DNA from: a bacterium
GTDB taxonomy: Bacteria; Patescibacteriota; Patescibacteriia; UBA1558; UBA10009
Assembly: GCA_018672055.1 (NCBI GenBank)
Contig: JABHGM010000001.1
Location: 353,404 to 417,403 of the forward strand
Reading direction: 5' to 3'
Length of the DNA: 64,000 bases
Part shown: piece after piece, positions 9,992 through 64,000 of the stretch
How positions within the stretch are numbered: position 1 is the first letter of the stretch
Layout: each line of letters opens with the position of its first letter
Translations under genes and position numbers: made by a program
Notes under the pieces: generated by a model
Database searches by the model: none
The model's input: only the letters and a program-made list of their open reading frames with translations
What the model was told of the DNA's origin: nothing

Positions 9992-10066
9992 GGCGGCGTA
10001 GCTCAGTGGTAGAGCAGCAGACTCATAAGCTGTTGGTCGGGGGTTCAAATCCCTCCGCCGCTACCA
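9992..10066 (+). tRNA. tRNA with CAT anticodon (elongator Met or lysidine-dependent Ile2)
   Basis: Cloverleaf drawn by hand: acceptor GGCGGCG/CGCCGCT, anticodon loop CTCATAA, T-loop TTCAAAT, CCA encoded. 31:39 is an A-G mismatch. Confidence 0.8.
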
Positions 10067-10071
10067 ATTTA

Positions 10072-10156
10072 GCCAGAGTGGTGAAACTGGTATACACGCA
10101 CGACTCAAAATCGTGTGCCGCAAGGCATGTGGGTTCGACTCCCACCTCTGGCACCA
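10072..10156 (+). tRNA. tRNA-Leu (CAA), class II with long variable arm
   Basis: Acceptor GCCAGAG/CTCTGGC, anticodon stem CACGA/TCGTG with loop CTCAAAA, variable arm GCCGCAAGGC, T-arm GTGGG-TTCGACT-CCCAC, CCA encoded. Confidence 0.85.
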
Positions 10157-10170
10157 CTCATGTGATACAC

Positions 10171-10246
10171 CCGCGCATAGCTCAGTTGGTAGAGCAGTTG
10201 CCTCTTAAGCAAACGGTCGGGGGTTCAAATCCCTCTGCGCGGACCA
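10171..10246 (+). tRNA. tRNA-Lys (CTT)
   Basis: Acceptor CCGCGCA/TGCGCGG, anticodon stem GTTGC/GCAAC with loop CTCTTAA, T-loop TTCAAAT, CCA encoded. Confidence 0.85.
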
Positions 10247-10292
10247 TTGACAAAATTACTAATATACGATAGCTTATAAACATCATATTTGA

Positions 10293-10368
10293 CGCGGGGT
10301 AGAGCAGTTGGCAGCTCGGCAGGCCCATAACCTGCAGGTCGCCGGTTCGAGTCCGGCCCCCGCAACCA
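10293..10368 (+). tRNA. Initiator tRNA-fMet (CAT)
   Basis: Acceptor CGCGGGG/CCCCGCA gives a C1:A72 mismatch. A11:U24 is present. 3' end CCCCGCAACCA is identical to E. coli tRNA-fMet. Anticodon loop is CCCATAA. Confidence 0.85.
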
Positions 10369-27341: not shown

Positions 27342-28934
27342 ATGCTTTTAAGTCAAAAAACAAAAATTACAAAAACAGCTACAATAGCCTTAGTTTTAGT
27401 CTTTGCGGTAGCTGTTTTTATGTTACTTACAACCATTGCTTTCGCTCAAGATGATTTTGGTTTAGAACCGGTTGTAGAATCAGGTTTAGGTACTACGGAC
27501 ATTAGATTAGTTATTATTAATATTATAAGGGTAGCTTTAGGTTTCTTAGGGATTTTAGCTGTTATCATAATATTATATGGTGGCTATGTTTGGATGACAT
27601 CTGCTGGTAATGATGAAAATGTTAACAAAGCTAAAAGAATATTGGTTAATGGCGTAATTGGTTTAGTAATAATATTATCATCTTACGCTATTGTAACTTT
27701 TGTTTTTAATAAGATGGAAGATGTTATATTTGGAGATGGTTCAGAACAAGGTAGTGGTTATCAGAATTCTGATATTTCTGCAGGAGCTTTGGGTGGCGGG
27801 GTTATAGAAAGCGTTTATCCTTTACCTGGTGCTAATAATGTACCACGTAATACTTTAATAATGGTTTCATTTAAAGAAGAAATACTTTTAGATAGTATTA
27901 TAACTGGTACTCATGCTAATTGTCCTGAGAATATATCATGTGGTATTTTAGCCGGTGATTCCGAAGATCCAAATGTTAAGATACTAAATTTAAATGACAA
28001 CTCCATAATGTCGGCTAGTGATGTCATGGTTTATACTACTGATTTAAAAAATTATATCTTTGATCCATATGGTAGTACAGGTTCACATTTAGGTAACCCT
28101 AATGGCTATACTGATTATCAAGTTAATCTCTCAACTAATATATATTTTAATAATGATTTAAATACTCCAGTCTTTTCTTTAGATGGCTATACTTGGAATT
28201 TTGAAATAAGTAATATTATAGATTTAACACCACCGACAATTATTTCACGTATACCTCAAGGTGAGGTTAACAGGAATGTAGTTATTCAAATAGTATTTAG
28301 TGAAGCTATTAATGCTGCTGCTGCTGTTAATTTAAATAGCGTTGATGTTTTATATGAAAATGTAGCAGGTGAAGAAATATTAATAGAAGGAAGTAGAGTA
28401 ATAAGTAATGGTTTTACAACTCTAACTATTGTTTCTGATATAGCGTGTGAAGGACCTTCAGAGTTTAATTCATGTGGTGATCCAGTCTATTGTTTTCCAG
28501 GTGATGAAGATATTTCTGTAACAGTTAAAGCTGTGACTGATCCTTTATTTCCTTTAGCTGGTATTTCTGATACAGCTGGTAATTCTTTAGCTTTAGACAA
28601 TTCTTGGCTTTTTAATACAAATAATGAATTAGATTTAGATCCTCCTGAATTAGAATCTATTGATCCAGTAGATAATGCTGAACTGGTACCACGTAATAAG
28701 GTGATAGAGGCAGTATTTAATGAAGATCTATTAGCTAGCAGTGTAAATAGTACTAATGTTTTAATATATAATGGTTCATTAAATGATACTCCATATACTG
28801 TTAATTTAAATAATCATGATTTGATTAGAATTAACGCTACTATGGTAGGTAATGCTACATATAGTACACGTTTAACTTCAGGCATTAAAGATATTTATCA
28901 AAATTGTTTTATTCCTCCTTTAACTAATCCATAA
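27342..28934 (+). CDS. Surface protein: VirB2/TrbC-like (T4SS-pilin-like) N-terminal two-helix domain fused to three SbsA/Big_5-like Ig domains
   Basis: 530 aa. Signal peptide (cleavage near AFA|QDD), then GLEPV..GLG and two hydrophobic helices (IIRVALGFLGILAVIIILYGGYVWMTSAG / ILVNGVIGLVIILSSYAIVTFVF). Three Ig-like modules begin PLPGANNVPRNTLIMVSF, IPQGEVNRNVVIQIVFSE, IDPVDNAELVPRNKVIEAVFNE. Stop overlaps the next start (ATAATG). Confidence 0.75.
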   Translation: MLLSQKTKITKTATIALVLVFAVAVFMLLTTIAFAQDDFGLEPVVESGLGTTDIRLVIINIIRVALGFLGILAVIIILYGGYVWMTSAGNDENVNKAKRILVNGVIGLVIILSSYAIVTFVFNKMEDVIFGDGSEQGSGYQNSDISAGALGGGVIESVYPLPGANNVPRNTLIMVSFKEEILLDSIITGTHANCPENISCGILAGDSEDPNVKILNLNDNSIMSASDVMVYTTDLKNYIFDPYGSTGSHLGNPNGYTDYQVNLSTNIYFNNDLNTPVFSLDGYTWNFEISNIIDLTPPTIISRIPQGEVNRNVVIQIVFSEAINAAAAVNLNSVDVLYENVAGEEILIEGSRVISNGFTTLTIVSDIACEGPSEFNSCGDPVYCFPGDEDISVTVKAVTDPLFPLAGISDTAGNSLALDNSWLFNTNNELDLDPPELESIDPVDNAELVPRNKVIEAVFNEDLLASSVNSTNVLIYNGSLNDTPYTVNLNNHDLIRINATMVGNATYSTRLTSGIKDIYQNCFIPPLTNP

Positions 28935-31900
28935 TGAGATTTATTAAAAACAATTTATTCATTTTAATATTACTTGTTGTAGTTAGTTTTTTTCTAATAC
29001 CTAATCTTTCATTTGCTCAAACTGATTTAGGTTTAGAACCGGTTGCAGAAACAGGTTTAGGTTCTAGTAGTTTACCAGAGCTAATTGTTAGAATAATTCA
29101 AATAGCTTTAGGCTTTCTTGGTATCTTAGCCTTAATAGTTATACTTTATGGAGGCTATACATGGTTATCATCTGGTGGTAATCAAGATAAGGTGGCTGAT
29201 GCTAAAAAAATACTTGTTAACGGTGTAATTGGTTTAGTAATAATATTATCTGCATTTAGTATTGTTACTTTTTTAATTACTAGAATATTTGATGCTACAG
29301 GTGGTGAAGCTTTGTATTGCGAAATAGGTCAAGTTGAAGAATGTTCTATGTCAGGTGATTGTGAAAGAGAGAAAACTTGTATTGATAATGGTGAAGGTAA
29401 TGGTGTCTGGGGAGATTGCGAAATAATTTACTCAGGTGAATGTAGTCCACTTAGTGATAGTGAATTTTTTAGACTAACAGCAACTGCTCCAGCTAATGGG
29501 GATGAACTAAATATTGCTAATGTTGTGGTTCAATTAACTTTTAATAATAATGTAGGTGATTTTAATGCCATAGATTTATCAGAAGGAGAAGGTGTAACTA
29601 TAGTTCAACGTTCAACTAATAATTTAGTACCTTTAGTAGGCGAAGTTTCAAATAATCCAAAAAAATTAAATATATATCCTGATAAAGATCAAGCTGGTTA
29701 TGCTTGTACTGGACATCCAGATCTTGCTTGTTTTCCATATGATTCAATTGATGATTTAAATAATTGGTATACAGTTACTGTTTTAACTGAGGGCGTTGTT
29801 TTAACTAATTCTTCTGGAACTGAAGTTTCTTGTTTAGATATACCTTGCGTATTTGAATTTAAAACAGGGTTTTCTGTAGATACAGAAAACCCTGTTGTAG
29901 ATTTAATTTCAGCTGTAAGTAATGGTCAGTTTGATTGGAATAATTCAGATAATATAGATATAAATATTTCTGAAAGCTTTTTATTTAATAGTCAGGCTTC
30001 TGATGACGCTGGTTTAGCTAGTTCTAATTTTTTTGAAAATCAAATTACTTTATCATCTACTCCTGATCTTGGACAAGGCTTGTTCTTATCACTTATTCCG
30101 TGGTCTCCTGAAGATTTAGGTTACCAAGTATCAGATGTAAAGCAGGTTGGGGCTGAAGTAACTGATTATGCTGGTAATTCAACTCAATCGATTAAACAAG
30201 TAACTCTTTTTTCAGCCACTTGTTATAACGAGATACAAGATGGAGATGAAATAGGTATAGATTGTGGTGGCTCATGTCCAGCGTGTAGTGATGAAAATGT
30301 AGATAATCCAATAATAACTTCTATTGATCCACCTAATGGTGCTTCAGGAAATTGGATAACCATTTATGGTTCAGGTTTTGGTGAGAGTCAAGGTACTATT
30401 AAATACAGGGATCAACTAGGAAATATTAATTATATTGGTGTACCTTCTTTAGGTATGTTGGTATGCGAAAGTCCATGGAATGATACTTGGATAATTATGG
30501 AAATACCAGATATTGATCTTGGTTTGGTTGATTTACAGGTGGTTAGGTTTAATTCTAGTATTAGTAGTAATTGGTATGAAGATTTTGATGTAAATACTAT
30601 TCAAAGACCTGGTATTTGTTTAATGACTTCAGATGATGGATATTATAATGATGAATTAAATATTATTGGTCATAGTTTTGGTGATAACACTGATGTACGT
30701 GATATATTTTTTGGACAATCAGTGGAAAGGGTATCAGCTTCAAATCAAAGCTTCAGTATTGAGGGAAGCATAGAACATGCTTATGGTAATGTACCTTATT
30801 TAGAAAGTGGCCAGACAGTAGTTAGGGTTGAAATAGATGGTGAAGAAAGTAATGGACTATATTTTACAGTAATAGATTCTAACCAAGAAAGTTCAATAAG
30901 TTTTTCACCAGATTCAGGTAATGTAGGTGAATACATTACTATTTATGGTTCAGGTTTTGGTGATTTCAAAGGTGAAGGAACTGTATATTTTAATAATAAT
31001 ATTGAAGGTAGTTTTGATTTTCCAGATGCTTGTGGCACTAACTATTGGTCTGACGATCAAATCGTGGTTAAAGTACCTGTCGGATCAAGTGATGGAGCAT
31101 TAAGAGTAGAAACAGATAGTGGTTACGTTGTTACTTCATCAACATTTTTTGATTTTAATAATACATTAGATATTTCTCCTGGAATTTGTAGTATTACTCC
31201 TAATTCAGGTTTAATAGATACGCCTGTATATATTGCTGGTGAGTTTTCTGAAGATGTTTTAGTTAATTTTTCTGGGATTGAACTATCTGATGTTGATATT
31301 GATAATAATGAAATAACCATCTTAGTTCCGAATGTTTCTTCAGGCTTAGTAAATTTAGAAGAACCAACTGGCGCTGAAAGTAATAGTGTTAATTTTTCAG
31401 TTGGTCAGACTTCTCAAGGCGGAGAACCTAATGATGATTATTTTGAATGGCAGTTTACAACTTGTGAAGATTGTTTAATTCCTGAAGTTGAGGAAAATGG
31501 TATATGTTCAAATGGTGATTTAGCTTCACCAAGCCCAAGACCATATAGTACTGATGGTTTTATTGATCAAGATGTTACCATAACTTTTAATAGTACTATG
31601 GACCATAGTACATTTATTGCTAATGATTCTGTTATTTTAGAAGTATGTGATGGTTTAGAAGTTAATTGTACTTCTAGTAATTGGTCATTTGTATTAGGTG
31701 ATAATAGAAATTCTGTAGTATTAAATCCAGATAATGATTTTAATGCTGATACTTGGTATAGGATAACTTTAACTGAAGATATTGCTAATTTTGAATATAA
31801 TATGGATGCAGAATATTCTTGGTCATTTAAAACAGCTCAAGAAAATTTACAATGTACTGCTGACTCAGTTATTATTTCTCCTTATGATAGAAGAGAAGGA

Positions 31901-34900
31901 TCAACGCTTGGACCAATTGAATTAAATGAATATGTTAACTATTCAGCATCAGGTGTAAATAGTAATAATTGTGCTTCATGTTCAGATGATTTTGAATGGG
32001 AATGGGAATCGAATGATCCAGGTGCTGTTATATCTGATACTAATTTATCAACTAATCAACTACATGCTGAAGGTTTAATTTCTTCTAATCAAGAAATAAT
32101 AATAGCTCAGATAATAGACGTTGAACCTTATCCAATAGGTAATGCATATTTAAATATTGTAGAAGAAACAGGTAATCAAGATAATGAGCCAGGTGATGAT
32201 CAATTACTGCTTGTTGATTATCAACCGGTTGGTGATCAGGTTTGCTTAAATACCTTAGCTCAAGTTGAATTTAATCATGGATTATCGGATAATGGCTTAT
32301 CTCAGTTTAGTTTTTTTAAGTGCTCAACTAGCGAAGGAGACTGTCCAACTTTAGGGGAGGGAGGTAATTGGATATCTGCAGGTTCAGACATTACTTTTAA
32401 TAACAATAATACTCTAGTTAGTATGTCTCCTAGTAGTGGTTTACTTGATCCAGATTTTGATTATAGGATAATTATGTATAGTGGTGATCCTGATATTCTT
32501 GGTGAGAGTCGCATTAGTACAGATGATGGCTTATTCTTAAATCAAGAAGGCTGTGAATATGGAGGCGGTAATTGGTTTCAGGGTATGCAATGGTGCTATT
32601 GGATATTTAGCACAGTAGATGAAAGGTGTGAAGTTGATAGCATAGGAATTTCTCCAAATAATGTTATTAATAATATTAATGATACACAGGATTGGCAGGC
32701 TACAGCTTATGATCAAGAAGGCTTAGCATTAACTGATGTTGTTGACTCATGGACTGTTAATGATAGTGAAATAGCTAGTATTGTAGATAATGGTGATAAT
32801 ACTGCTACTACTGATAGTCTATCATCTGGCAGTACTTGGCTTTATACTGATATAGATATAGATAATATTCGAGGGGAAGCCTGGTTAGAAGTGGAGCCAA
32901 GTATTGTTAATCCTCAAATAATTAGTACTCAACCTATAGGTCAAGAATATTTTTGTACAAACTCATTGGTAGAAGTTACTTTTGATCAGTATTTAAAGAG
33001 AGAGACTGTAAATCAAAATACATTTGAATTAAATCAATTTTCAGATACAGATTTAGGTGGCTGTATTGCTTTTGATGAAACTATAGCTTTTGGTGAGCCA
33101 ACTAATTTAATAAATAAATTTACGGATGTATATTTTAATAAGTTTATATCTAATTTAACTAGTAAGTTAGTAAATTATGTATTTAACAAGGTGTATGCTA
33201 TTGTTCCTGACTGGATTCCTCAATCTGGATATTGGTGTCCCTTAAATAATTCAGGTGAATGGATTTTAGATAATATTGGTGGTGAAGGTAGGGTTAAATT
33301 TCAGCTAAACGAGGTTTTGCCAGGAAATAGTAGTATTCAAGTTTTAATTCAAGGCGGTCAAGGTGGAGTCTTAAGTATTCAAGACTTACCTTTAGATATA
33401 AATAGTGATACTTATGATTATTATTTTAATACTAGTGATACTTATTGTGAATTGAGCTTTTTACAAGTTTCTACTGATTTAGAAACTTATTCGCCAGAGT
33501 ATACTTTTAATATTAGTGAAGATTCTAGCAATCTAGATGAAAATGATCCATTGAGTGGTAATTTTGATACTATTAATGATTATGATAAAGCTTTCTATGT
33601 AACTGGTTTTAGTCAAAATGGTCAAGCTTTGACTTCAGTGCCTGGTGAGTATGAATGGATATGGCGTTGGAATAGTGAAGACACTTCTATTGCTTTAACT
33701 ACAGATTCTGTTAATTACAGTGAGTATTATGATGCAGATTATGATGGTAACTATAATGTAGTACTAGCCGCTAACAATAATGGTGAAACAGATATTACTG
33801 CTCATGCAGTATTTATAGATAACAGTTCCTTGGCAGGTACTGGGCAGGTTATCGTTGATTTATGCGAAAATCCATGGCCAGCTGTAGATATAACTAATTT
33901 AGATAATACATATTATGAAGATACTAATTTTTCATTTGGTTTAAGTTATTGTCGTGATGCTGGTTTATATGGCTTTAATGATGATCTACCTTCACTTGGT
34001 GATATTTCTGATAATGTAACCCTTTATAATATTAGTGCTGATGATTTATTAAAAGAGTATTTAATGCCAGTAGGAGATGATCTTATTGGTTTAAGAGTAT
34101 ATACTAATGATAATCATTTAAGTCCAGCTGAGTGGTATTCAAATAATATACCTGAGTTACAGCAGGGTAATTTATCCTATCTAATAGTAGATGGCTATCA
34201 AGCAATTCAAGATGGTAGAACTATTTACGTAGCAGCTACTAGTGTAACTAATGATAATATATCAATTTATTCAGATATTTTCCTTCTATCATATAACTCT
34301 GAGGCTTCAGCTGAAACAGTTAATATATATAATCAATTAATTGATAGATGGATTTTTAATACAAATATTTTAGAAGAGAATAAGGGTAAGTTAATTAGAG
34401 ATTTAAAAAGGTTAAATGATTTAACCTATATTAAAGAAGTATTAAATAATTATAATGCTATAAATAATACATATCCTATATTATCAGGTGGTACTTTCTT
34501 AACAGGTATGAGTACTTCTAAATGGCCTTCCTGGAATAATACTTTTTCTTCAGAACTTAATGCTTCATTACCTATTGATCCTATTAATCAATTTAATGCA
34601 TGCGCAGATTGCACTTCATCTTCAGATGCTAGTTGTGATAACTATGATATAAATACTTGTTGGAACCCTGATTTAAATAACGGGCAAGGTAATTTTTCTT
34701 GTGACGCTGGTTCTTATTTCTATAGATATCAATATTCATATAATGCAGGACCTGATTATTTATTAGCTGCTAAAATGGAATTTCCATATGTAGGTAATAT
34801 AGCTTCTACTTGGAATCCTTCTTTCGATACTAATCATTTATATTTAAGTACAGAATTTGTAGAAGGTTGTGGTTTTGAATTTTTAGGACAAGTTTGTGGT

Positions 34901-36727
34901 AATGGTTCTATTGAAGGCAGTGAAGAATGTGAGTTAGGTGATTCTATAAATTACTGTGGCTATGATCACGCATATTACGAGTCACAACTAGTTGGTTGTT
35001 CTGATATTGATTGTACTTGGGCTGAAGATGATTCTGGTGTTTGCGGAGGTTATTGTGGTGATGGTAATGTTGATAGTTTTGAAGATTGTGACGGAGGCAT
35101 TAATTGTAGTGACACTTGTGATTTTATACCATATTGTGGTGATAATATTGCTCAAACTTATTTAGATGAAGAATGTGATGGTTCTGATTTAGGTAATTTT
35201 AGTTGTAGTGATAATTCAACACCTAGTTGTAATACGTCTTGTGAAATAAGTTGTCCTTCTGGTGAATTATATGGTGGATCATGTGGTAATAATATAAAAG
35301 AAGGCACAGAAGAGTGTGATGGTCTTGATACGCCTCCTAATACCTCATGTAACACATCCTGTGAGGTAACAAGCTGTACTGGTAGTTATTTAGCTTGTGA
35401 TGGTAATTTAACTGATTTAGATGGTTGTGAAGTAGATATATTATCTGATGAATATAATTGTACTGCTTGTGGTAATAGCTGTTATGATGTTTCTGATATT
35501 AATGAGAATACTTTAGTTGAGTGTACTCAATATATTAATGATGATGGAGATGATTCAGCTGTTTGTTCATATGGTTGTAATCCATATGATACTTGGTTAA
35601 ACTGTGATTATTCTCCAGCGGGTTGTGAATCAAATTATTTAACGGATTCTAGTAATTGTAATGTTTGTGGAAATGACTGTAGTATTGATCCTGGCACTAT
35701 AATTCAAGCTGATCTTGATAATAATATTGATTATTTTTCAGGTTCACCATATCCAGCAGCTGATACTACAATTTATACCTGTGAAAATGGCGGTTGTGGT
35801 TTTATTTGTGAGGAAGGTAGTTATGCAAATTGTGATGAAGTTTCTGATTGTGAAACTATTTTATATAATGATAGTGAAATTACTTGCGGAGAATGTGGTA
35901 ACGGAGTAATTGAAGGTAATGAGCAATGTGAATTAGGTGATTATAGTGCAGAGTTAGTATTTGTTTTTGATATTTCTACAAGTATGGATGATGATGCAGC
36001 TGGTCTATGTTCAGCTTTAGATAGCTTATCTCAAGAATTAGATGAAGATGAAATTAACTATATGTTAACTGTAATGACTTTAAATGGTGGTGTTGGCACA
36101 ACAACTGTTGGCACAACAGATGCTTATGATGCTTTAGTGACTGATTGTGATATATATGGACATGATAATATTCAACACTTTAATTTTTATGATAATTCAT
36201 CAAATAATATTTCAGTTGACGTCGAACAAACTTGTGGGGTAATAACTGGTGCTAAGGAACATTGGGGATATGCTACAAATATTATTGCTCAGTCATATAA
36301 TTGGAATACAGATTATTCAATAACACAAAAGATAATTGTACCAGTTAGTAATGAAGGTCCTTGGTGTGGTGGCGGTAATACTAGTAATGATAGTACTATT
36401 GATAGTGAGGATATTAGTATTGTTTCTACTGCTATTACTACAGCCCTGAATAATTCTGTATTAGTTAGTCCTGTTATAATTCAATTTATTCCACTTGATT
36501 ATGATGAGGATGATGATGATTATGAAACATATTATTATGATGATAATGAAGAACCAGCTCAATCTTACGCTAGTCTTTCCTGGGGTGCTTTATCTGGTTT
36601 AAGTGATAATTTTGTACAGACTGGTGGAATATATACTAATTCATCAGATAATTGGTCTAGTACAATAAATACTATAATTACGGGTAGTACTTGTACTGAT
36701 GAATGTATTTTTCCAGTGATTGAATAA
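28934..36727 (+). CDS. Giant 2597-aa surface protein: same T4SS-pilin-like N-terminal domain, IPT/TIG and Big-like domains, five Myxococcus-type Cys-rich repeats, C-terminal vWA domain
   Basis: N-terminal 115 aa nearly identical in pattern to the upstream protein (GLEPVAETGLG..IIQIALGFLGILALIVILYGGYTWLSSGGNQDKVADAKKILVNGVIGLVIILSAFSIVTF). IPT/TIG-like ITSIDPPNGASGNWITIYGSGFG, ISFSPDSGNVGEYITIYGSGFG, ICSITPNSGLIDTPVYIAGEF. Five CGNG.IEG.EECELGD-type repeats. vWA MIDAS VFVFDISTSM. Confidence 0.8.
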   Translation: MRFIKNNLFILILLVVVSFFLIPNLSFAQTDLGLEPVAETGLGSSSLPELIVRIIQIALGFLGILALIVILYGGYTWLSSGGNQDKVADAKKILVNGVIGLVIILSAFSIVTFLITRIFDATGGEALYCEIGQVEECSMSGDCEREKTCIDNGEGNGVWGDCEIIYSGECSPLSDSEFFRLTATAPANGDELNIANVVVQLTFNNNVGDFNAIDLSEGEGVTIVQRSTNNLVPLVGEVSNNPKKLNIYPDKDQAGYACTGHPDLACFPYDSIDDLNNWYTVTVLTEGVVLTNSSGTEVSCLDIPCVFEFKTGFSVDTENPVVDLISAVSNGQFDWNNSDNIDINISESFLFNSQASDDAGLASSNFFENQITLSSTPDLGQGLFLSLIPWSPEDLGYQVSDVKQVGAEVTDYAGNSTQSIKQVTLFSATCYNEIQDGDEIGIDCGGSCPACSDENVDNPIITSIDPPNGASGNWITIYGSGFGESQGTIKYRDQLGNINYIGVPSLGMLVCESPWNDTWIIMEIPDIDLGLVDLQVVRFNSSISSNWYEDFDVNTIQRPGICLMTSDDGYYNDELNIIGHSFGDNTDVRDIFFGQSVERVSASNQSFSIEGSIEHAYGNVPYLESGQTVVRVEIDGEESNGLYFTVIDSNQESSISFSPDSGNVGEYITIYGSGFGDFKGEGTVYFNNNIEGSFDFPDACGTNYWSDDQIVVKVPVGSSDGALRVETDSGYVVTSSTFFDFNNTLDISPGICSITPNSGLIDTPVYIAGEFSEDVLVNFSGIELSDVDIDNNEITILVPNVSSGLVNLEEPTGAESNSVNFSVGQTSQGGEPNDDYFEWQFTTCEDCLIPEVEENGICSNGDLASPSPRPYSTDGFIDQDVTITFNSTMDHSTFIANDSVILEVCDGLEVNCTSSNWSFVLGDNRNSVVLNPDNDFNADTWYRITLTEDIANFEYNMDAEYSWSFKTAQENLQCTADSVIISPYDRREGSTLGPIELNEYVNYSASGVNSNNCASCSDDFEWEWESNDPGAVISDTNLSTNQLHAEGLISSNQEIIIAQIIDVEPYPIGNAYLNIVEETGNQDNEPGDDQLLLVDYQPVGDQVCLNTLAQVEFNHGLSDNGLSQFSFFKCSTSEGDCPTLGEGGNWISAGSDITFNNNNTLVSMSPSSGLLDPDFDYRIIMYSGDPDILGESRISTDDGLFLNQEGCEYGGGNWFQGMQWCYWIFSTVDERCEVDSIGISPNNVINNINDTQDWQATAYDQEGLALTDVVDSWTVNDSEIASIVDNGDNTATTDSLSSGSTWLYTDIDIDNIRGEAWLEVEPSIVNPQIISTQPIGQEYFCTNSLVEVTFDQYLKRETVNQNTFELNQFSDTDLGGCIAFDETIAFGEPTNLINKFTDVYFNKFISNLTSKLVNYVFNKVYAIVPDWIPQSGYWCPLNNSGEWILDNIGGEGRVKFQLNEVLPGNSSIQVLIQGGQGGVLSIQDLPLDINSDTYDYYFNTSDTYCELSFLQVSTDLETYSPEYTFNISEDSSNLDENDPLSGNFDTINDYDKAFYVTGFSQNGQALTSVPGEYEWIWRWNSEDTSIALTTDSVNYSEYYDADYDGNYNVVLAANNNGETDITAHAVFIDNSSLAGTGQVIVDLCENPWPAVDITNLDNTYYEDTNFSFGLSYCRDAGLYGFNDDLPSLGDISDNVTLYNISADDLLKEYLMPVGDDLIGLRVYTNDNHLSPAEWYSNNIPELQQGNLSYLIVDGYQAIQDGRTIYVAATSVTNDNISIYSDIFLLSYNSEASAETVNIYNQLIDRWIFNTNILEENKGKLIRDLKRLNDLTYIKEVLNNYNAINNTYPILSGGTFLTGMSTSKWPSWNNTFSSELNASLPIDPINQFNACADCTSSSDASCDNYDINTCWNPDLNNGQGNFSCDAGSYFYRYQYSYNAGPDYLLAAKMEFPYVGNIASTWNPSFDTNHLYLSTEFVEGCGFEFLGQVCGNGSIEGSEECELGDSINYCGYDHAYYESQLVGCSDIDCTWAEDDSGVCGGYCGDGNVDSFEDCDGGINCSDTCDFIPYCGDNIAQTYLDEECDGSDLGNFSCSDNSTPSCNTSCEISCPSGELYGGSCGNNIKEGTEECDGLDTPPNTSCNTSCEVTSCTGSYLACDGNLTDLDGCEVDILSDEYNCTACGNSCYDVSDINENTLVECTQYINDDGDDSAVCSYGCNPYDTWLNCDYSPAGCESNYLTDSSNCNVCGNDCSIDPGTIIQADLDNNIDYFSGSPYPAADTTIYTCENGGCGFICEEGSYANCDEVSDCETILYNDSEITCGECGNGVIEGNEQCELGDYSAELVFVFDISTSMDDDAAGLCSALDSLSQELDEDEINYMLTVMTLNGGVGTTTVGTTDAYDALVTDCDIYGHDNIQHFNFYDNSSNNISVDVEQTCGVITGAKEHWGYATNIIAQSYNWNTDYSITQKIIVPVSNEGPWCGGGNTSNDSTIDSEDISIVSTAITTALNNSVLVSPVIIQFIPLDYDEDDDDYETYYYDDNEEPAQSYASLSWGALSGLSDNFVQTGGIYTNSSDNWSSTINTIITGSTCTDECIFPVIE

Positions 36728-57671: not shown

Positions 57672-59753
57672 ATGCCAGAAGAATATCCAATAGATAAATA
57701 TCGTAACATTGGAATTATTGCTCATATTGATGCAGGTAAAACAACTGTAACTGAGCGTATTTTATATTACACCGGTAAAAAACATAAGATCGGTGAAGTT
57801 CATGAAGGTGAAGCTGAAATGGATTGGATGGAACAAGAACAAGAAAGAGGAATTACCATTACTTCAGCTGCTACTACATGTTTTTGGAATGATTGTCGTA
57901 TTAATATCATTGATACTCCAGGACATATTGATTTTACTGCTGAAGTACAAAGATCACTCCGTGTTTTAGATGGTGGGGTTACTGTTTTTGATGGTGTGGC
58001 TGGTGTTGAGCCTCAATCTGAGACTGTATGGCATCAAGCTGAAAAATTTAGCTTACCTCAATTATGTTTTATTAATAAGATGGATAGAATGGGTGCTGAT
58101 TTTTATAAAGATTTAGAATCAATTGATGCACGTTTAACTAAAAAAGCTTATCCTATTCAATTACCTATTGGTGCAGCTGAAACATTTGAAGGTATTATAG
58201 ATATTTTAACCCGTAGAGCCTATTATTATAAAGATGATATGGGTAAAGAAATAGAAGAAACTGATGTACCTGAGGATATGAAAGATAAAGTAGAAGAATA
58301 TAGAGCTAAGTTAATTGAAGCAGTTGCTGAAAATGATGAAGATTTAATGAATAAGTATTTAGATGGTCAAGAGTTAGAAATTGATGAAATTAAAAAAGTT
58401 TTAAGAAAAGCAGTACTAGCCTATGAAATGTTTCCTGTATTATGTGGTAGTGCTTTAAAAAACAAAGGTGTCCAATATTTATTAGACGCTGTTGTTGAAT
58501 ATTTACCATCACCTGTAGACGTTCCTGATATTGAAGGTTTTGAATCTGGTGATGAAGAAACTAAATTAACTCGTAAAGCTGATATAACTGAACCTTTTGC
58601 TGCACTTGCCTTTAAAATAGCTACTGACCCTTTTGTTGGTAAGTTAGCTTTTTTTAGAGTTTATTCTGGTACCTTAAAATCAGGTTCTTATCTATACAAT
58701 TCATCTACTGGTAAAAGAGAAAGAGTTGGTAGAATACTTTTAATGCATGCTAATAGCAGAGAAGAAATCGATGAAGCAAAAGCAGGGGATATAGCTGCTG
58801 CTGTTGGTTTAAAAAATACTGTAACTGGTAATACATTATGTGATGAAGATAATCAAATTGTTTTAGAAAATATTAATTTTCCAGATCCAGTTATTTCTAT
58901 TGCTGTTGAACCTAAAACAAAACAGGATCAAGAAAAAATGGGTATGGCCTTACAAAAACTATCAGAAGAAGATCCTACTTTCCAAGTTAAAACAGATGAA
59001 GAAACCTTACAGACTATTATTTCAGGAATGGGTGAGCTTCACTTAGAGATTATTATTGATCGTATGAAACGTGAGTTTAATGTTGAATGTAATGTTGGAC
59101 AACCTCAAGTCGCTTATAGAGAAACTATCAAAAAACTTGCTGAAGCTGAAGGTAAATATATTCGTCAGTCAGGTGGTCGTGGTCAATATGGTCATTGTTG
59201 GATTAGAGTAGAACCACAAGAAGCTGGCAAAGGTTTTGAATTTGATGATGAAATAAAAGGTGGTGCAATTCCTAAAGAATATATCCCAGCTATTGGTAAA
59301 GGTATTAAAGAAGCTGCTGATAATGGCGTACTTGCTGGTTATCAAGTTATTGATTTTAAAGCTACAGTATATGATGGTTCATTTCATGATGTTGATTCAT
59401 CTGAATCTGCATTTAAAATTGCTGGTTCAATGGCTTTTCAAGAAGCTGTTAAAAAAGCAAGTATTATCTTACTTGAACCAATGATGAAGATTGAAGTAAT
59501 TACTCCTGAAGAATTTATGGGTGATGTAATTGGTGATTTAAATTCAAAGAGAGGTCAAATTAATGAGATGACTGAAAGAGGTAATATGAAAGTAGTTGAT
59601 GGTATGGTACCACTTGCATCTATGTTTGGTTATGCAACTTCTTTAAGATCCCTAACTCAGGGTAGAGCTAGTTATTCAATGGAATTTGATAAATATACTG
59701 AAGTTCCTAAAAATGTTGAAGAGAAGATTAAAGAATCAAGAGGTAAGGAATAA
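57672..59753 (+). CDS. fusA: Elongation factor G
   Basis: 693 aa. G1 [10 protein letters not shown]3 DTPGHIDF, G4 NKMD, EF-G domains IV/V. Confidence 0.97.
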
Positions 59754-59838: not shown

Positions 59839-60210
59839 ATGAAGAAATTACTTACAATAATGGCAATATTATACTTTATTTCTATAATATTAATGCCACT
59901 TGCTATGCCTAACTGTGGAACCAATGGTTTTCATATGGGCTTTATGGCTGAGAATAATTTTTGTGGTGGTGGTATGGATTTAACTCATATTTCATTTATG
60001 AGAAGTTTAATATTTATTAATTTTATTGTTTCATTTGTTACAATATTTTTTATTTTATTTAAGCAGAGTGTTTTTTCAATAATAAATAATATTAAAGATA
60101 ACTTTAAGATAACTTTAAAACAATTTAATATCTCATATCTGATGAAACCATTTGATAGATTATTGCTGGCATACTCATCGGGTATTATTGAAAATAAGAC
60201 ATTCTGCTAA
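59839..60210 (+). CDS. Hypothetical membrane protein
   Basis: 123-aa ORF, two TM helices. Confidence 0.4.
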   Translation: MKKLLTIMAILYFISIILMPLAMPNCGTNGFHMGFMAENNFCGGGMDLTHISFMRSLIFINFIVSFVTIFFILFKQSVFSIINNIKDNFKITLKQFNISYLMKPFDRLLLAYSSGIIENKTFC

Positions 60211-60251: not shown

Positions 60252-60980
60252 ATGTTAGATAATAAACAGAGTGTTTTTTCTTTAATGAAACCAACAACTC
60301 TAATAATAACCGGTATCATTGTTGGTATCTTAGTAGCTTCTACAATAGGTTTTGTAGTCATGCTAGCCAAAGGTACAGATGATAGTAAAAAAACAACTAT
60401 TAATAATGTTGAAGATAATAATATAGCTCCTACGCCTCAAGCACCAGTAGCTGGTAGGAAAGATGTTGTAATTAATTCAGGTGATCATATATTAGGTGAT
60501 CCTAATGCACCTGTTAAGATTGTAGAATTTTCTGATTTTGAGTGTCCTTTCTGTAGCAGACATCATCCAACCTTAAAACAAGTTATGCAAGAATATGGTG
60601 ATCAAGTAGCTTGGGTATACAAGCATTTTCCGCTAGATTCAATTCATAAGGAAGCTCGTCCTGCTGCTGAGGCCTCTGAATGTGTAGCTGACCAATTGGG
60701 TGAAGAGGGTTTCTGGAATTTTACTGATACTATGTTTGCCAACCAAAGAAGTTTAGGTAGCAGTTATTACAAAGAAGTAGCCAGTGAATTAGGTGCTGAT
60801 CTTGATGAATTTAATAATTGTGTTAGTACTGGAAAATTTGCAGATAAAGTAGAGGATGATTACCAACAAGGTTTAAATTTAGGTGTAACTGGTACTCCTG
60901 GTAATTTCATTAATGGTATTGAAGTTAAAGGCGCTATACCATTTGCCACTCTTAAACAAATAATTGATTCAGAATTATAA
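60252..60980 (+). CDS. Membrane-anchored DsbA-like thiol:disulfide oxidoreductase
   Basis: 242 aa. N-terminal TM. Thioredoxin-fold active site FSDFECPFCSRHHP. Confidence 0.8.
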   Translation: MLDNKQSVFSLMKPTTLIITGIIVGILVASTIGFVVMLAKGTDDSKKTTINNVEDNNIAPTPQAPVAGRKDVVINSGDHILGDPNAPVKIVEFSDFECPFCSRHHPTLKQVMQEYGDQVAWVYKHFPLDSIHKEARPAAEASECVADQLGEEGFWNFTDTMFANQRSLGSSYYKEVASELGADLDEFNNCVSTGKFADKVEDDYQQGLNLGVTGTPGNFINGIEVKGAIPFATLKQIIDSEL

Positions 60981-60990
60981 AATTAACTAT

Positions 60991-61386
60991 ATGAATAAAC
61001 AATCATTAATCTTAATAATAATTACATTAATTGCCGTAACTTCTCTTGCAGCTTTAGTAATTTTCCCAAATTATTTCATCTATCGTTTTATGGGGCCAGA
61101 AGGCATGCATGAACATATGACTAAAGTTCGTGAGTATGGTATTCATATGGCTGGGGAAAGAGGGGAATACAATTGTTGCATTGAACCTGATTGTACTATG
61201 TGCTATTCAGAAGGTAATAAATGGAATTATGGCAAAGCTGGTACTTGTGCTTGTGATGATTTTATTGCTCGCGGTGAAGAGCCTTGTCCTCAATGTGCTA
61301 GGGCTTTAGATTGTAGTAGTGATGAGGAAGGTCCAGAGCATGATGGATCAGAAGATCCTGAAGTATGTGTAATTGACTTAGAATAA
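60991..61386 (+). CDS. Exported Cys-rich small protein (12 Cys; hypothetical metal- or disulfide-related)
   Basis: Start set at ATG 60991 (MNKQSLILIIITLIAVTSLAAL signal/anchor); the track ORF begins at 60964 inside dsbA. Cys pattern CC..C..C, C.C, C..C, C. Confidence 0.5.
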   Translation: MNKQSLILIIITLIAVTSLAALVIFPNYFIYRFMGPEGMHEHMTKVREYGIHMAGERGEYNCCIEPDCTMCYSEGNKWNYGKAGTCACDDFIARGEEPCPQCARALDCSSDEEGPEHDGSEDPEVCVIDLE

Positions 61387-61399
61387 CTAATATATAGAA

Positions 61400-61945
61400 A
61401 TGTTGAATTTAATAAAATCTTTTCAAATAGTATTTAAAGAATTTAAGTATATAATATTTGTATTGATTTTTGCTTTTATAATTTTCTTAATTAATTTATG
61501 GTTACCAAACAAGGAGTTATATAAATTAATTATAACCTCGGACAACTTTGATTTATTGGTTAGGTTTAAATTATTTATTTCAACATTTGGTTTGATTAAT
61601 TCTAGTTTCACGTTAGCTTCAAAAAGCATAGTTATTATTCTATCCATTTTAGGTGGTATTAATATCTCAATGTTTATATTTTACTTAAAGACCAGGATCA
61701 CTTTAGAGAAATCTTCGGGTCTTGGTCTTTTAGGTATTATTAGTGGGTTGCTTGGAGTTGGTTGTGCCTCATGTGGCTCTGTAGTACTTTCTACATTAAT
61801 AGGTGTTTCTTTAACTACAGGTATAGTTGATTTTTTACCTTTAAATGGTTTAGAGTTTGGAATCCTTGGAATGATTATAGTTATTTTATCAATTTATTTA
61901 CTTTCTAAGAAAATTTTAAATCCTTTAATTTGTAAAGTTAAATAA
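61400..61945 (+). CDS. Polytopic membrane protein with a CxxC pair (GVGCASCGS)
   Basis: 181 aa, 4 TM helices. GCASCG resembles the GMHCASCA metal-binding motif of the downstream P-type ATPase. Confidence 0.45.
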
Positions 61946-61955
61946 CATTAAATAT

Positions 61956-64000
61956 ATGAAACATACATATCCAATTAAAGGTATGCATTGCGCTTCATGT
62001 GCTCTGTCAATTGAAAAAGAGTTAAATAAGCTTTCTGAAGTAAAAGAAGTAGTTGTTAATTATGCTAATGAAAAATTAACTCTTGAAGTGGCTGGTGATC
62101 CTGATATAGAAAAACTTAAAAAAGTAATTGGTAGCGTTGGTAATTATGAGTTAATTATTGAAGATGAGCATCATAAAAAGGAAGGTGGTCATCATGATCA
62201 CGGACCTAAAGTAGACAAGCAGAAGAAATTAATGATTTGGTCAATTATTTTAACATTAGGCATATTTCTAATTAATTGGTTTCTAGATATTGAGTCCAAA
62301 AATCTTTTAATGCTTATTTTATCAACGCCAGTACAATTTTATATTGGAGGCCAATTCTATAAAGCAACATGGCCAGCTTTAAAAAGATTTAAAGCTAATA
62401 TGGATACTTTAATAGCTATGGGTACCTCTGTTGCGTATTTTTTTAGCTTAGCTGTTATTATTTTAGAATTAGATTTACATGTATATTTTGAAACTGCTTC
62501 AGCTATTATTACTTTAATAATAGTTGGACGTTATTTAGAGGCTAGAGCTAAATCAAAAGCTTCTAATGCTATTAAGAAATTATTAGAACTTAGTGCTAAA
62601 AAAGCACGTATAATTCGAGATAATAAAGAGATTGAAATTGATATTAGTGAAGTGAAAGTAAATGATAGTATTTTAGTAAAGCCAGGTGAAAAGTTCCCAG
62701 TTGATGGAGAAGTTATTGAAGGACACTCATCAGTTAATGAATCTATGGTTTCAGGTGAAAGTATACCAGTAGAAAAATCAGTAGGTGATTTAGTTATTGG
62801 GGCTACTATTAATCAAAATGGAGTAATTAAGTTCAAAGCAACAAAAGTTGGAAAAGATACAATGCTAGCACAAATAGTTAAAATGGTAGAAGAAGCCCAA
62901 GGTTCTAAAGCACCTATTCAAAGATTAGCTGATTCTATATCTTCTGTTTTTGTACCTACAGTTATTATAATAGCTTTATTTACATTTTTAAGTTGGTACT
63001 TTTTAACTGATATTGGTTTAGCATCATCAATTATTTATTCAGTGGCTGTTTTAGTTATTGCTTGTCCTTGTGCTTTAGGTTTAGCTACACCAACAGCTAT
63101 TATGGTTGGTTCAGGACGTGGTGCAGAAAATGGCATATTGATTAAAAATGCTGAGAGTTTAGAAAGAGCTCATAAAATTACTACAATTGTTTTTGATAAA
63201 ACTGGTACTATAACTAAGGGTAGTCCTGAAGTAGTAAATATTTTAGGAAATAATGATGTTTTAGAAATAGCTTATGCCTTAGAAAAAAATTCAGAACATC
63301 CTTTAGCTCAAGCTGTTATTAATGAAGCTGAAAAGAAAAAGTTAACTCTTAAAAAAGTAAGTGATTTTAAATCAGTAACTGGACGAGGTATTAAAGCTAG
63401 TATTGATAGCAACACATATCTATTAGGTAATTTGCCATTTTTAAATGACAATAGTATTACCTTATCTAATAATCAGGAAGCAGAAATAACTAAAGCTGAA
63501 AGTATGGGTCAGACTGCTTTAATCTTGGCGGGTAAGAATGAATATTTAGGAGTAATTCTAGTAGCTGATCAAATTAAAGAAACTTCTAAGAAAGCTATTG
63601 AGAAATTAAAAGATATGAATGTTAAAACAATTATGTTAACTGGTGATAATGAATTGACTGCTCAGGCTATTACTAAAGAAGTTGGTATTGATCAAGTTTA
63701 TGCAAGACTTATGCCTGATCAAAAAGTTGAGAAGATTAAGGAGCTTCAGAAAAAAAGTGAAGTTGTGGCTATGGTTGGGGATGGTATAAATGATGCACCT
63801 GCTTTAACTCAAGCAGATGTAGGCCTAGCTATTGGTACTGGAACAGACATTGCTATTGAATCAGCAAATATAACATTAGTTCATGGTGATTTATTAAAAG
63901 TAGCAGAAGCTATTAAATTATCTAAAAAAACTGTTCAAAATATTAAACAGAATTTATTTTGGGCTTTCTTCTATAATACTATAGGTATACCTCTTGCAGC
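61956..64000 (+). CDS. copA: Copper/heavy-metal translocating P-type ATPase, N-terminal about 680 aa (runs off the window)
   Basis: Hand translation from ATG 61956: [23 protein letters not shown].. (HMA domain), TM region, phosphorylation motif [10 protein letters not shown] around 63190, [10 protein letters not shown] near the end of the window. Absent from the track because no stop lies in the window. Confidence 0.85.

Follow-up and report, generated by a model that had tools for sequence, protein, structure and literature searches.

We examined a stretch of 64,000 nucleotides (nt), referred to here as the window, from contig JABHGM010000001.1 (positions 353,404 to 417,403, forward strand) of a member of the Patescibacteriota (GenBank assembly GCA_018672055.1). 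At its 3' end lies a run of genes for a small protein with two transmembrane (TM) helices (ORF0), a DsbA-like oxidoreductase, a cysteine-rich protein (CysR), a four-TM protein (TM4) and the copper-exporting ATPase CopA; ORF0, CysR and TM4 are labels coined in this analysis. We tentatively read this cluster as an extracytoplasmic copper/thiol-stress module of bacteria like those of the Candidate Phyla Radiation (CPR)/Patescibacteria, in which a reductive relay would run from TM4 to DsbA beside CopA, and we give this reading somewhat less than an even chance. It starts from what is firmly established for the locus and its relatives: the gene identities, the conservation in TM4 of three cysteines together with P147, G150 and E152, the linkage of DsbA and TM4 genes, and the copper context. 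The best explanation of its layout is that the module was built from separable parts, namely ORF0-DsbA-CysR, TM4 and CopA.

The cluster comprises five + strand genes in tandem, from 59839 to beyond 64000, in the order ORF0-DsbA-CysR-TM4-CopA and with gaps of 41, 10, 13 and 10 nt. The original prediction, made from the sequence alone, had described four genes beginning with the oxidoreductase; the tight same-strand run stands, but the count is five, ORF0 lying 41 nt upstream and being a conserved neighbour of this type of DsbA. The features are located as follows.

59839..60210, + strand: ORF0, 123 amino acids (aa), two TM helices, with Cys26, Cys42, a His and a C-terminal GIIxxK-type motif
60252..60980, + strand: DsbA-like, membrane-anchored thiol-disulfide oxidoreductase, 242 aa
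60543..60554, + strand: CPFC active site of the DsbA-like protein (residues 98-101), as read from the sequence
60991..61386, + strand: CysR, predicted signal-anchored extracytoplasmic protein with an acidic tail, 131 aa, 10 Cys
61168..61296, + strand: cysteine-rich core of CysR (residues 60-102), Y-x-CC-x4-C-x-M-C ... NxWN ... C-x-C-D ... CPxC
61400..61945, + strand: TM4, predicted four-TM protein, 181 aa
61763..61774, + strand: membrane CxxC of TM4 (C122-A-S-C125) in G-V-G-C-A-S-C-G-S, from family conservation
61931..61933, + strand: Cys178 of TM4, in the predicted cytoplasmic tail, K-K-I-x-N/D-P-x-x-C, from family conservation
61956..64000, + strand: CopA, P1B-1 Cu(I)-exporting ATPase; the window ends at residue 681 and the full protein has 714 aa
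61980..62000, + strand: N-terminal HMA motif GMHCASC of CopA (residues 9-15; Pfam HMA, 3.4e-14)
63063..63071, + strand: transmembrane CPC metal site of CopA (residues 370-372), a sequence motif

Two of the products belong to known families. The protein encoded at 60252-60980 matches both Thioredoxin_4 (PF13462; 5.4e-29, 101.9 bits against a cut-off of 23.2) and DSBA (PF01323; 3.9e-18, 66.3 bits against 25.6), and carries an N-terminal TM anchor, the CPFC site and a G-T-P-G (Thr-Pro loop) close to its C-terminus. Family model, CxxC and Thr-Pro loop together identify it, on sequence grounds, as a DsbA-family protein, in agreement with the earlier description of a membrane-anchored thioredoxin-fold protein with CPFC. 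The last gene had been called a copper P-type ATPase with an HMA domain, and this is borne out by the NCBIfam models TIGR01511 (4.5e-181, 603 bits against a cut-off of 397) and TIGR01525 (7.7e-190), by its HMA, E1-E2 ATPase and hydrolase domains and by the motifs GMHCASC, CPC, DKTGT and GDGIND. A full-length copy of this ATPase is found on a public contig (L161), which is identical to the window over all 4162 of 4162 overlapping bases, and there NX6YNX4P of TM7 and PX6MXXSS of TM8 are also present, beside the CPC of TM6; judged by its motifs, the protein is CopA with the complete signature of a P1B-1 Cu(I) exporter. The independent gene call of L161 gives the same products of 242, 131, 181 and 714 aa. 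NCBI names the gene at 60252-60980 'DsbA family protein', and ORF0, CysR and TM4 'hypothetical protein [bacterium]'.

Gene neighbourhoods were compared in 80 TM4-anchored loci, taken from GTDB species representatives, and 80 CysR-anchored metagenome loci, numbered L001 onwards, in which all six-frame open reading frames (ORFs) were labelled by profiles. In 67 of the 80 species TM4 is immediately preceded, on its own strand, by a DsbA-like gene, with a median gap of 3 nt, and the DsbA in this position carries CPFC, as in the window, in 59 of 63. CopA is encoded within 6 kb in 29 of the 47 TM4 loci with sufficient flanking sequence, though neither its distance nor its orientation is constant. 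The constant partner of TM4 is therefore DsbA and not CopA, a pairing that suggests a hitherto undescribed membrane partner of surface thiol enzymes; the earlier suggestion that the four-TM protein is a metal-transfer partner of the ATPase is not supported in that form. Of the 18 CysR loci with long enough flanks, 12 encode CopA within 6 kb and 11 encode CsoR within 4 kb. Recurrent neighbours across the loci are CsoR (45 loci), multicopper oxidase, DUF3105 and SHOCT proteins, a BlaI-type repressor (Penicillinase_R family, which includes CopY) accompanied by an M56 sensor protease, and, beside CopA, an HMA-DsbD_2-cupredoxin protein. With the DsbA and CopA assignments and the recurrent DsbA-TM4 and CopA linkage, the broader proposal of a redox/copper-handling cluster holds.

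Two further arrangements bear on what TM4 does. In L026, L033, L035, L049 and L057, DsbA1(CPFC) and TM4 are followed in one operon by a true DsbB (PF02600, 2.5e-14) and then DsbA2(CEAC); the two membrane/thioredoxin-fold pairs, standing side by side, argue against TM4 being simply a replacement for DsbB. In L028 and L054 a Cys-rich domain is fused to TM4, and in 7 further loci a separate gene immediately after TM4 encodes this domain, which suggests that TM4 works with Cys-rich surface domains.

TM4 belongs to a large family. A profile search recovered 2023, 1344 and 386 clusters (50% identity) at E ≤ 1e-3, 1e-10 and 1e-30, respectively, including 679 distant matches with E between 1e-10 and 1e-3; the best 150 of the 2023 matches, which were the ones listed, are all close TM4 homologues. 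Relatives occur in 238 GTDB species, and the named records are Patescibacteria/CPR, with some third-party-annotation (TPA) records of metagenome-assembled genomes (MAGs) bearing other, unconfirmed taxon labels. All 83 homologues compared keep G112, G121, C122, C125, P147, G150 and E152, the invariance of the CxxC being partly by construction because that motif was in the search pattern; the remaining positions lay outside the pattern, as did C178, which is present in 82 of the 83. No family was matched by TM4, CysR or ORF0 in Pfam (searched with all members) or NCBIfam (searched with the window proteins), and no PDB sequence or fold by TM4, in line with the earlier view of the two middle genes as uncharacterised. 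Text searches, using motif strings and Patescibacteria combined with DsbA or copper, returned no description of the TM4 or CysR families. TM4 and CysR are thus sizeable unannotated families whose named sources are nearly all CPR/Patescibacteria.

The structure model of TM4 has a mean predicted local distance difference test (pLDDT) score of 81.5 and contains six helices, four of which were read as TM segments, with an amphipathic helix within loop 1. Positive charge is concentrated in the N-terminus, loop 2 and the tail, a distribution that would place both termini, and with them C178, in the cytoplasm and would put the CxxC into the outer half of TM3. The predicted topology, four TM segments with cytoplasmic termini, is supported by the fused homologues L028, L054 and L019, where a Lys-rich stretch and a fifth TM follow C178; in L028 and L054 this fifth TM leads into the Cys-rich domain.

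Comparison with known membrane thiol and metal proteins leaves TM4 apart from those compared. The original prediction had pointed to the likeness between GVGCASCGS in TM4 and GMHCASCA in the ATPase; the short motif is indeed shared, and GCAxC also occurs in TM1 of MerC, but profile comparison does not support homology. None of 24 TM4 family members matched PF02600 (DsbB) at E ≤ 5, and homology with the DsbB of related loci was rejected (hhalign, 0.1%). DsbB has two periplasmic Cys pairs, one per outward loop, whereas the conserved cysteines of TM4 are only C122xxC125 and C178, with none in loops 1 or 3. VKOR is recognised by a PF07884 match, a pair of loop cysteines and a CxxC that starts the fourth TM, none of which TM4 has; a jackhmmer search with human VKORC1 matched no ORF of the loci, a weak test that says little about VKOR elsewhere in the genomes. 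DsbD/CcdA proteins are built of two repeats, each with one redox Cys, and have at least six TM segments, against four in the TM4 model. Against Tn21 MerC (query 100% identical to annotated merC) only the GCAxC motif aligned (hhalign, 2.8%) and homology was rejected; TM4 has no PF03203 (MerC) or PF02411 (MerT) match in the Pfam search, and does not carry its Cys pair in TM1 as MerC and MerT do. Homology with the ORF0-like family was also rejected (hhalign, 1.1%), as was the idea that TM4 is a general replacement for the HMA-DsbD_2 protein, the two co-occurring in 15 loci. The original prediction had named CopZ, CusF, MerT/MerP and DsbD/CcdA as families to which the two middle proteins might be related; no such similarity was seen by profile or structure, and by the criterion given with that prediction membership in these families is refuted, though a functional analogy is not.

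One comparison gives a lead only. Against a second four-TM family, which we term CCAHH, TM4 scored 65% in hhalign with large alignments and 12.7% with small ones, in the same register. CCAHH proteins are hydrophobic membrane proteins of ~150 aa, apparently four-TM, and have no Pfam or PDB match. Their C-C-A-H(H) motif, invariant among them, falls on TM3 when they are aligned to TM4, and they carry a G-F-G-x-Q motif as well. Members were seen in the same copper neighbourhoods (L001 6094-6561, L016 6717-7193, L021 8704-9138, L031 10050-10502, L054 13506-13943 and L056 6730-7220), the one in L001 immediately before CysR-TM4-CopA.

CysR has 30 homologue clusters by single-sequence search and 349 by profile, none with a Pfam match or a name; the named sources are nearly all Patescibacteria/CPR, with one labelled Atribacteria. 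An exported protein with 12 cysteines had been described; the export holds up and the number is 10, of which 8 are invariant family-wide and a ninth, C126, is present in at least 90% of members. Nine being an odd number, at least one of these conserved thiols would be free. The invariant positions are Y60, C62, C63, P66, C68, M70, C71, N76, W78, N79, C86, C88, D89, C99, P100 and C102. The segment preceding the single N-terminal helix has a net charge of +1.7 and the part that follows the helix one of -0.3, a bias that would put the Cys-rich domain outside the cell. CysR matched no Pfam or NCBIfam model, no PDB sequence in a profile search and no PDB fold, and no hidden Markov model or fold match was found to HMA/CopZ, CusF, metallothionein, CopG or PCYCGC-type proteins. 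Compared by hhalign with other Cys-rich neighbour families and with FtrD-like proteins, it aligned through the N-terminal TM segment only, and these relationships were rejected. As a small Cys-rich protein in a copper context CysR resembles CueP, CopL, CupA, CusF, CopZ/HMA, metallothioneins and CopG/DUF411; its relatives are encoded within csoR…copA operons, and it would be tethered to the membrane next to a Cu(I) exporter. The chaperone or sponge role proposed for it earlier fits this position, with Cu(I) binding itself putative.

The usual gene order around CysR is CsoR, FtrD-like, (DsbA, mostly CPYC), CysR, HMA-DsbD_2-cupredoxin, CopA. Next to CysR in L096 (1337-2299) and L104 (3474-4484), a cytoplasmic HMA, a TM helix and an extracytoplasmic DsbA are fused in one protein. 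Of the 160 loci, only L001, L011, L027 and L083 combine CysR with TM4 as the window does, and the window DsbA is closest to the ORF0-DsbA-CysR type, that is, to CysR-adjacent DsbAs without TM4. On both counts the window appears to be a mosaic of separable modules. TM4 occupies in it the slot usually held by the DsbD_2 protein.

ORF0 belongs to a recurrent family whose two TM helices flank a stretch holding two Cys and a His (N-C-P-F...C...E-H-I-x-x-W in the larger subgroup) and whose C-terminus bears a G-I-[IL]-x-P-K-x-F motif. At least 9 TM4 loci and 7 CysR loci have a member of this family 5' of DsbA. Loci with that arrangement include L001, L082, L084-86, L089 and L143; a related group ('c16') is found likewise in TM4 loci.

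Other unannotated or composite proteins were seen in these neighbourhoods. The HMA-DsbD_2-cupredoxin proteins (52 ORFs, for instance L098 7362-8849 and L142 2056-3555) are ~495 aa long with a Gly/Cys-rich C-terminal tail and stand immediately beside CopA in many CPR loci; upstream of them lies a protein of the FtrD-like type (PF10080), which in some cases carries a fused thioredoxin-like domain. The Cys-rich extracytoplasmic domain 'L028C' (CCSPMNxHRY ... PCCCKCWRWY ... DGCGG) is unannotated, and proteins with this domain are encoded at L028 5165-6316, L054 6998-8143, L063 7559-8134 and L065 7549-8139; it is either joined to TM4 by way of the fifth helix or encoded by the next gene downstream. 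A His/Cys-rich domain, 'L041C' (HEHADF...HLHDG...THKH...C...C), also unannotated, is found in 20 ORFs across the loci, either as a gene of its own following TM4 or joined to a second DsbA whose active site is CEAC (examples at L041 7573-8766, L055 6935-7426 and L012 7565-7990).

Taken together as a mechanism, the parts could work as follows. CopA would export Cu(I) from the cytoplasm, and CysR, tethered outside by its N-terminal helix, would offer its 8-9 conserved cysteines as a Cu(I)-thiolate acceptor or buffer. TM4 would be the dedicated membrane partner of DsbA, passing its cargo, most likely reducing equivalents, out of the cytoplasm to DsbA by way of C178 in the tail and C122xxC125 in the outer half of TM3. 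DsbA would keep CysR, and other surface thiols that copper has damaged, in the reduced or correctly paired state. The participation of C178 and the direction of electron flow are both presumed here. A thiol-disulfide relay from a thioredoxin-reduced cytoplasm to a DsbA-type CxxC runs downhill toward DsbA according to established redox potentials, and this favours the proposed direction if C178 belongs to the thiol relay. A reductive relay is also favoured by the links with Cys-rich domains, by the DsbB-containing operons, by the predicted cytoplasmic position of C178 and by the precedent of the ScsB-ScsC pair.

A number of observations weigh against this proposal. The TM4 model is weakest, with pLDDT of 56-71, precisely around the CxxC and loop 3. 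Known thiol-disulfide transporters are inverted repeats of 6-8 TM, whereas TM4 is a four-TM bundle; it has no PF02683 or PF13386 match in Pfam, and homology with the 52 DsbD_2 proteins of the same loci was rejected (hhalign, 0.6%). An aromatic residue within CPxC is a usual feature of oxidising DsbAs. Fifteen of the 80 TM4 loci also encode a DsbD_2-type protein, which would make a second supplier of reductant partly redundant. In the window itself CysR lies between DsbA and TM4, and the DsbA groups with the CysR-adjacent subtype, so that the DsbA-TM4 pairing at this locus is drawn from the relatives. No CsoR, BlaI-type (CopY-family) repressor or stand-alone HMA protein is encoded in the 64-kb window or in the 7 kb downstream; the cluster is not a csoR-copZ-copA operon, in which a repressor and a CopZ chaperone would stand beside CopA. 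A scan of this AT-rich DNA found promoter-like sites at or below the shuffled expectation and no terminators, a result with no bearing on co-transcription.

The same evidence was weighed under three other explanations. TM4 might be a new oxidase of the DsbB/VKOR/MauE kind that re-oxidises the CPFC DsbA, with CysR and the Cys-rich neighbours as disulfide-rich substrates. A DsbA gene followed after 3 nt by a four-TM CxxC protein in 67 of 80 species resembles the operon-encoded DsbA/DsbB-type pairs of other bacteria, and a four-helix bundle with its termini inside, a large outward loop 1 bearing an amphipathic helix, and a TM whose outer half holds a CxxC follows the general plan of DsbB and VKOR; the dipeptide of CPFC is akin to that of oxidising DsbAs. 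MauE offers a precedent for a single-motif oxidase and gaps in DsbA re-oxidation are documented (10.64898/2026.03.05.709764), while VKOR is just the third most frequent neighbour of the CPR MdbA-like family (PMC6744442). We nevertheless consider such an oxidase unlikely: TM4 has no Pfam DsbB or VKOR match, reaches 0.1% in hhalign against the loci's own DsbB and has no loop cysteine pair, its invariant cytoplasmic Cys would be without a role in a quinone-linked oxidase, and a bona fide DsbB and a second DsbA share its operon in at least 5 species. The TM4 family also seems accessory and copper-linked rather than universal, and to our knowledge CPR bacteria mostly lack quinone synthesis.

If TM4 carried metal instead, much as the original prediction envisaged, it could be a Mer-type thiol-relay transporter handing Cu(I) between DsbA-like/CysR, the membrane CxxC, Cys178 and HMA domains. 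Its G-x-G-C-A-S-C resembles both the HMA GMHCASC of the adjacent CopA and the MGCAAC in TM1 of MerC, a membrane Cys pair with a cytoplasmic C-terminal Cys is also found in MerC, MerT and MerF, and the copper gene context would suit, as would the weak same-register similarity to the four-TM CCAH(H) family, although the 65% in hhalign fell to 12.7% otherwise. The DsbA-like ScsC is reported to bind Cu(I) tightly (PMC8900818). Such a transporter is nonetheless fairly improbable, as Pfam gives no MerC or MerT match and hhalign only 2.8% to MerC, the constant partner has a thioredoxin fold and is not of the HMA or MerP type, a lone cytoplasmic Cys would accept metal less well than the paired cysteines of Mer proteins, and bringing Cu(I) in next to its own exporter would gain nothing for a cell without an outer membrane. 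Finally, DsbA, CysR, TM4 and CopA could be mosaic neighbours that act independently, with no joint function. The exact order DsbA-CysR-TM4-CopA is rare, with CysR and TM4 together in four other loci of 160, the window DsbA is nearest to CysR-adjacent DsbAs without TM4, and the whole lies in a block of ~8 kb inserted between fusA and tuf. Yet the DsbA-TM4, DsbA-CysR, CysR-CopA and TM4-CopA links each recur far above chance in many species, the gaps are 10-41 nt on one strand with no terminator-like site seen, and components are joined in the HMA-DsbA and TM4/Cys-rich-domain fusions, which together make mere coincidence very unlikely. The reductive TM4-DsbA relay beside CopA thus remains the explanation we favour, at the tentative level stated above.

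Upstream of the cluster lie rpsL, rpsG and fusA (EF-G, 57672-59753), and the window and L161 (1-20396) together show that a block of ~8 kb is inserted between fusA and tuf-rpsJ-rplC-rplD, in the usually contiguous str/S10 region. On L161, ORF0-DsbA-CysR-TM4-CopA is followed within the block by genes for an Mrr_cat nuclease, three small products that are membrane or hypothetical proteins, P5C reductase and two hypotheticals. In the relatives L084-L086, fusA is likewise immediately 5' of ORF0-DsbA-CysR. Elsewhere in the window we observed a giant + strand ORF of 2597 aa (28934-36727) and four tRNA genes (Met, Leu-CAA, Lys-CTT and Met) within ~380 nt (9992-10368).

Among known systems, the Scs system of Salmonella, Proteus and Caulobacter (ScsB-ScsC(-ScsD) with CueP and CopA) is, like this cluster, a copper-linked envelope module, and the proposed relay would be its functional parallel, as ScsB, ScsC and CueP work in that order beside CopA in Salmonella. 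ScsB and ScsC form a copper-induced reductive pair that cooperates with CueP and CopA (PMC10907172), and ScsC is described as binding Cu(I) and transferring it to CueP (PMC10907172, PMC8900818). Shared features are a membrane protein with redox cysteines, a DsbA-like partner, a Cys-containing envelope protein and a Cu(I) P-type ATPase (PMC10907172), with the Cu(I) role of CysR putative. The differences are considerable: ScsB belongs to the DsbD family and has eight TM and two periplasmic domains, whereas TM4 has four TM and 181 aa and no detectable DsbD/CcdA similarity; CysR has no family-model or solved-structure match, a direct comparison with CueP falling outside these searches; and this host, unlike the Scs hosts, has no outer membrane.

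TM4 shares with DsbB, VKOR and MauE a small four-TM bundle with a cysteine motif near the outer membrane face, and its gene directly follows that of DsbA, much as the DsbB gene of related loci adjoins a DsbA gene. It departs from them in carrying the CxxC in TM3 instead of at the start of TM2 or the fourth TM, in lacking a second periplasmic Cys pair, in its invariant cytoplasmic Cys and in coexisting with a true DsbB. Membrane cysteines, thioredoxin-fold partners and the slot between CysR and CopA are common to TM4 and CcdA/DsbD_2 proteins; the latter, however, have six TM and one Cys per repeat, whereas TM4 has a single CxxC in one helix and a tail Cys. MerC resembles TM4 in its four TM segments, a GCAxC inside a TM helix, C-terminal cytoplasmic cysteines and an extracytoplasmic CxxC partner, but the motif is in TM1 of MerC and in TM3 of TM4, the partner has a DsbA fold and not the HMA fold of Mer systems, and the setting is one of copper export and not mercury reduction.

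The window DsbA is also like the MdbA-like family fam000318, a membrane-anchored CxxC oxidoreductase family that is CPR-enriched and that Méheust et al. (2019) linked to pilin folding (PMC6744442). For that family VKOR, the third most frequent neighbour, is the only partner discussed; a TM4 partner and a copper context are not mentioned there, and the supplement has no adjacency table (PMC6744442). A 2026 preprint adds MauE as a DsbB-like enzyme, concludes that further pathways remain and reports that ~20% of the surveyed species are without a known DsbA partner (10.64898/2026.03.05.709764).

How DsbA is recycled outside the DsbB/VKOR paradigms is thus an acknowledged open question, and TM4, with at least 1344 clusters, tied to one DsbA subtype and unannotated, is a concrete candidate for a missing DsbA partner. 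The question is pointed in CPR/Patescibacteria, which are rich in MdbA-like oxidoreductases (PMC6744442) yet mostly without respiratory quinones. A bolder version, which we regard as doubtful but worth stating, is that TM4 represents an unrecognised class of DsbA partner, a minimal four-TM, three-Cys, quinone-free relay without kinship to DsbB, VKOR, MauE or DsbD/CcdA, serving organisms in which respiratory chains are largely missing, and that together with CysR as a new Cu(I)-thiolate fold it forms the CPR answer to copper damage at a cell surface lacking a periplasm. The copper operons of these bacteria hold several unannotated Cys/His-rich surface proteins, including CysR, ORF0-like proteins, 'L028C', 'L041C' and the CCAHH four-TM family, which are largely unexplored candidate metal or thiol handlers in a major bacterial branch. 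Were even the more ordinary reading true, hundreds to thousands of 'hypothetical proteins' could be re-annotated as accessory Dsb or copper-tolerance genes.

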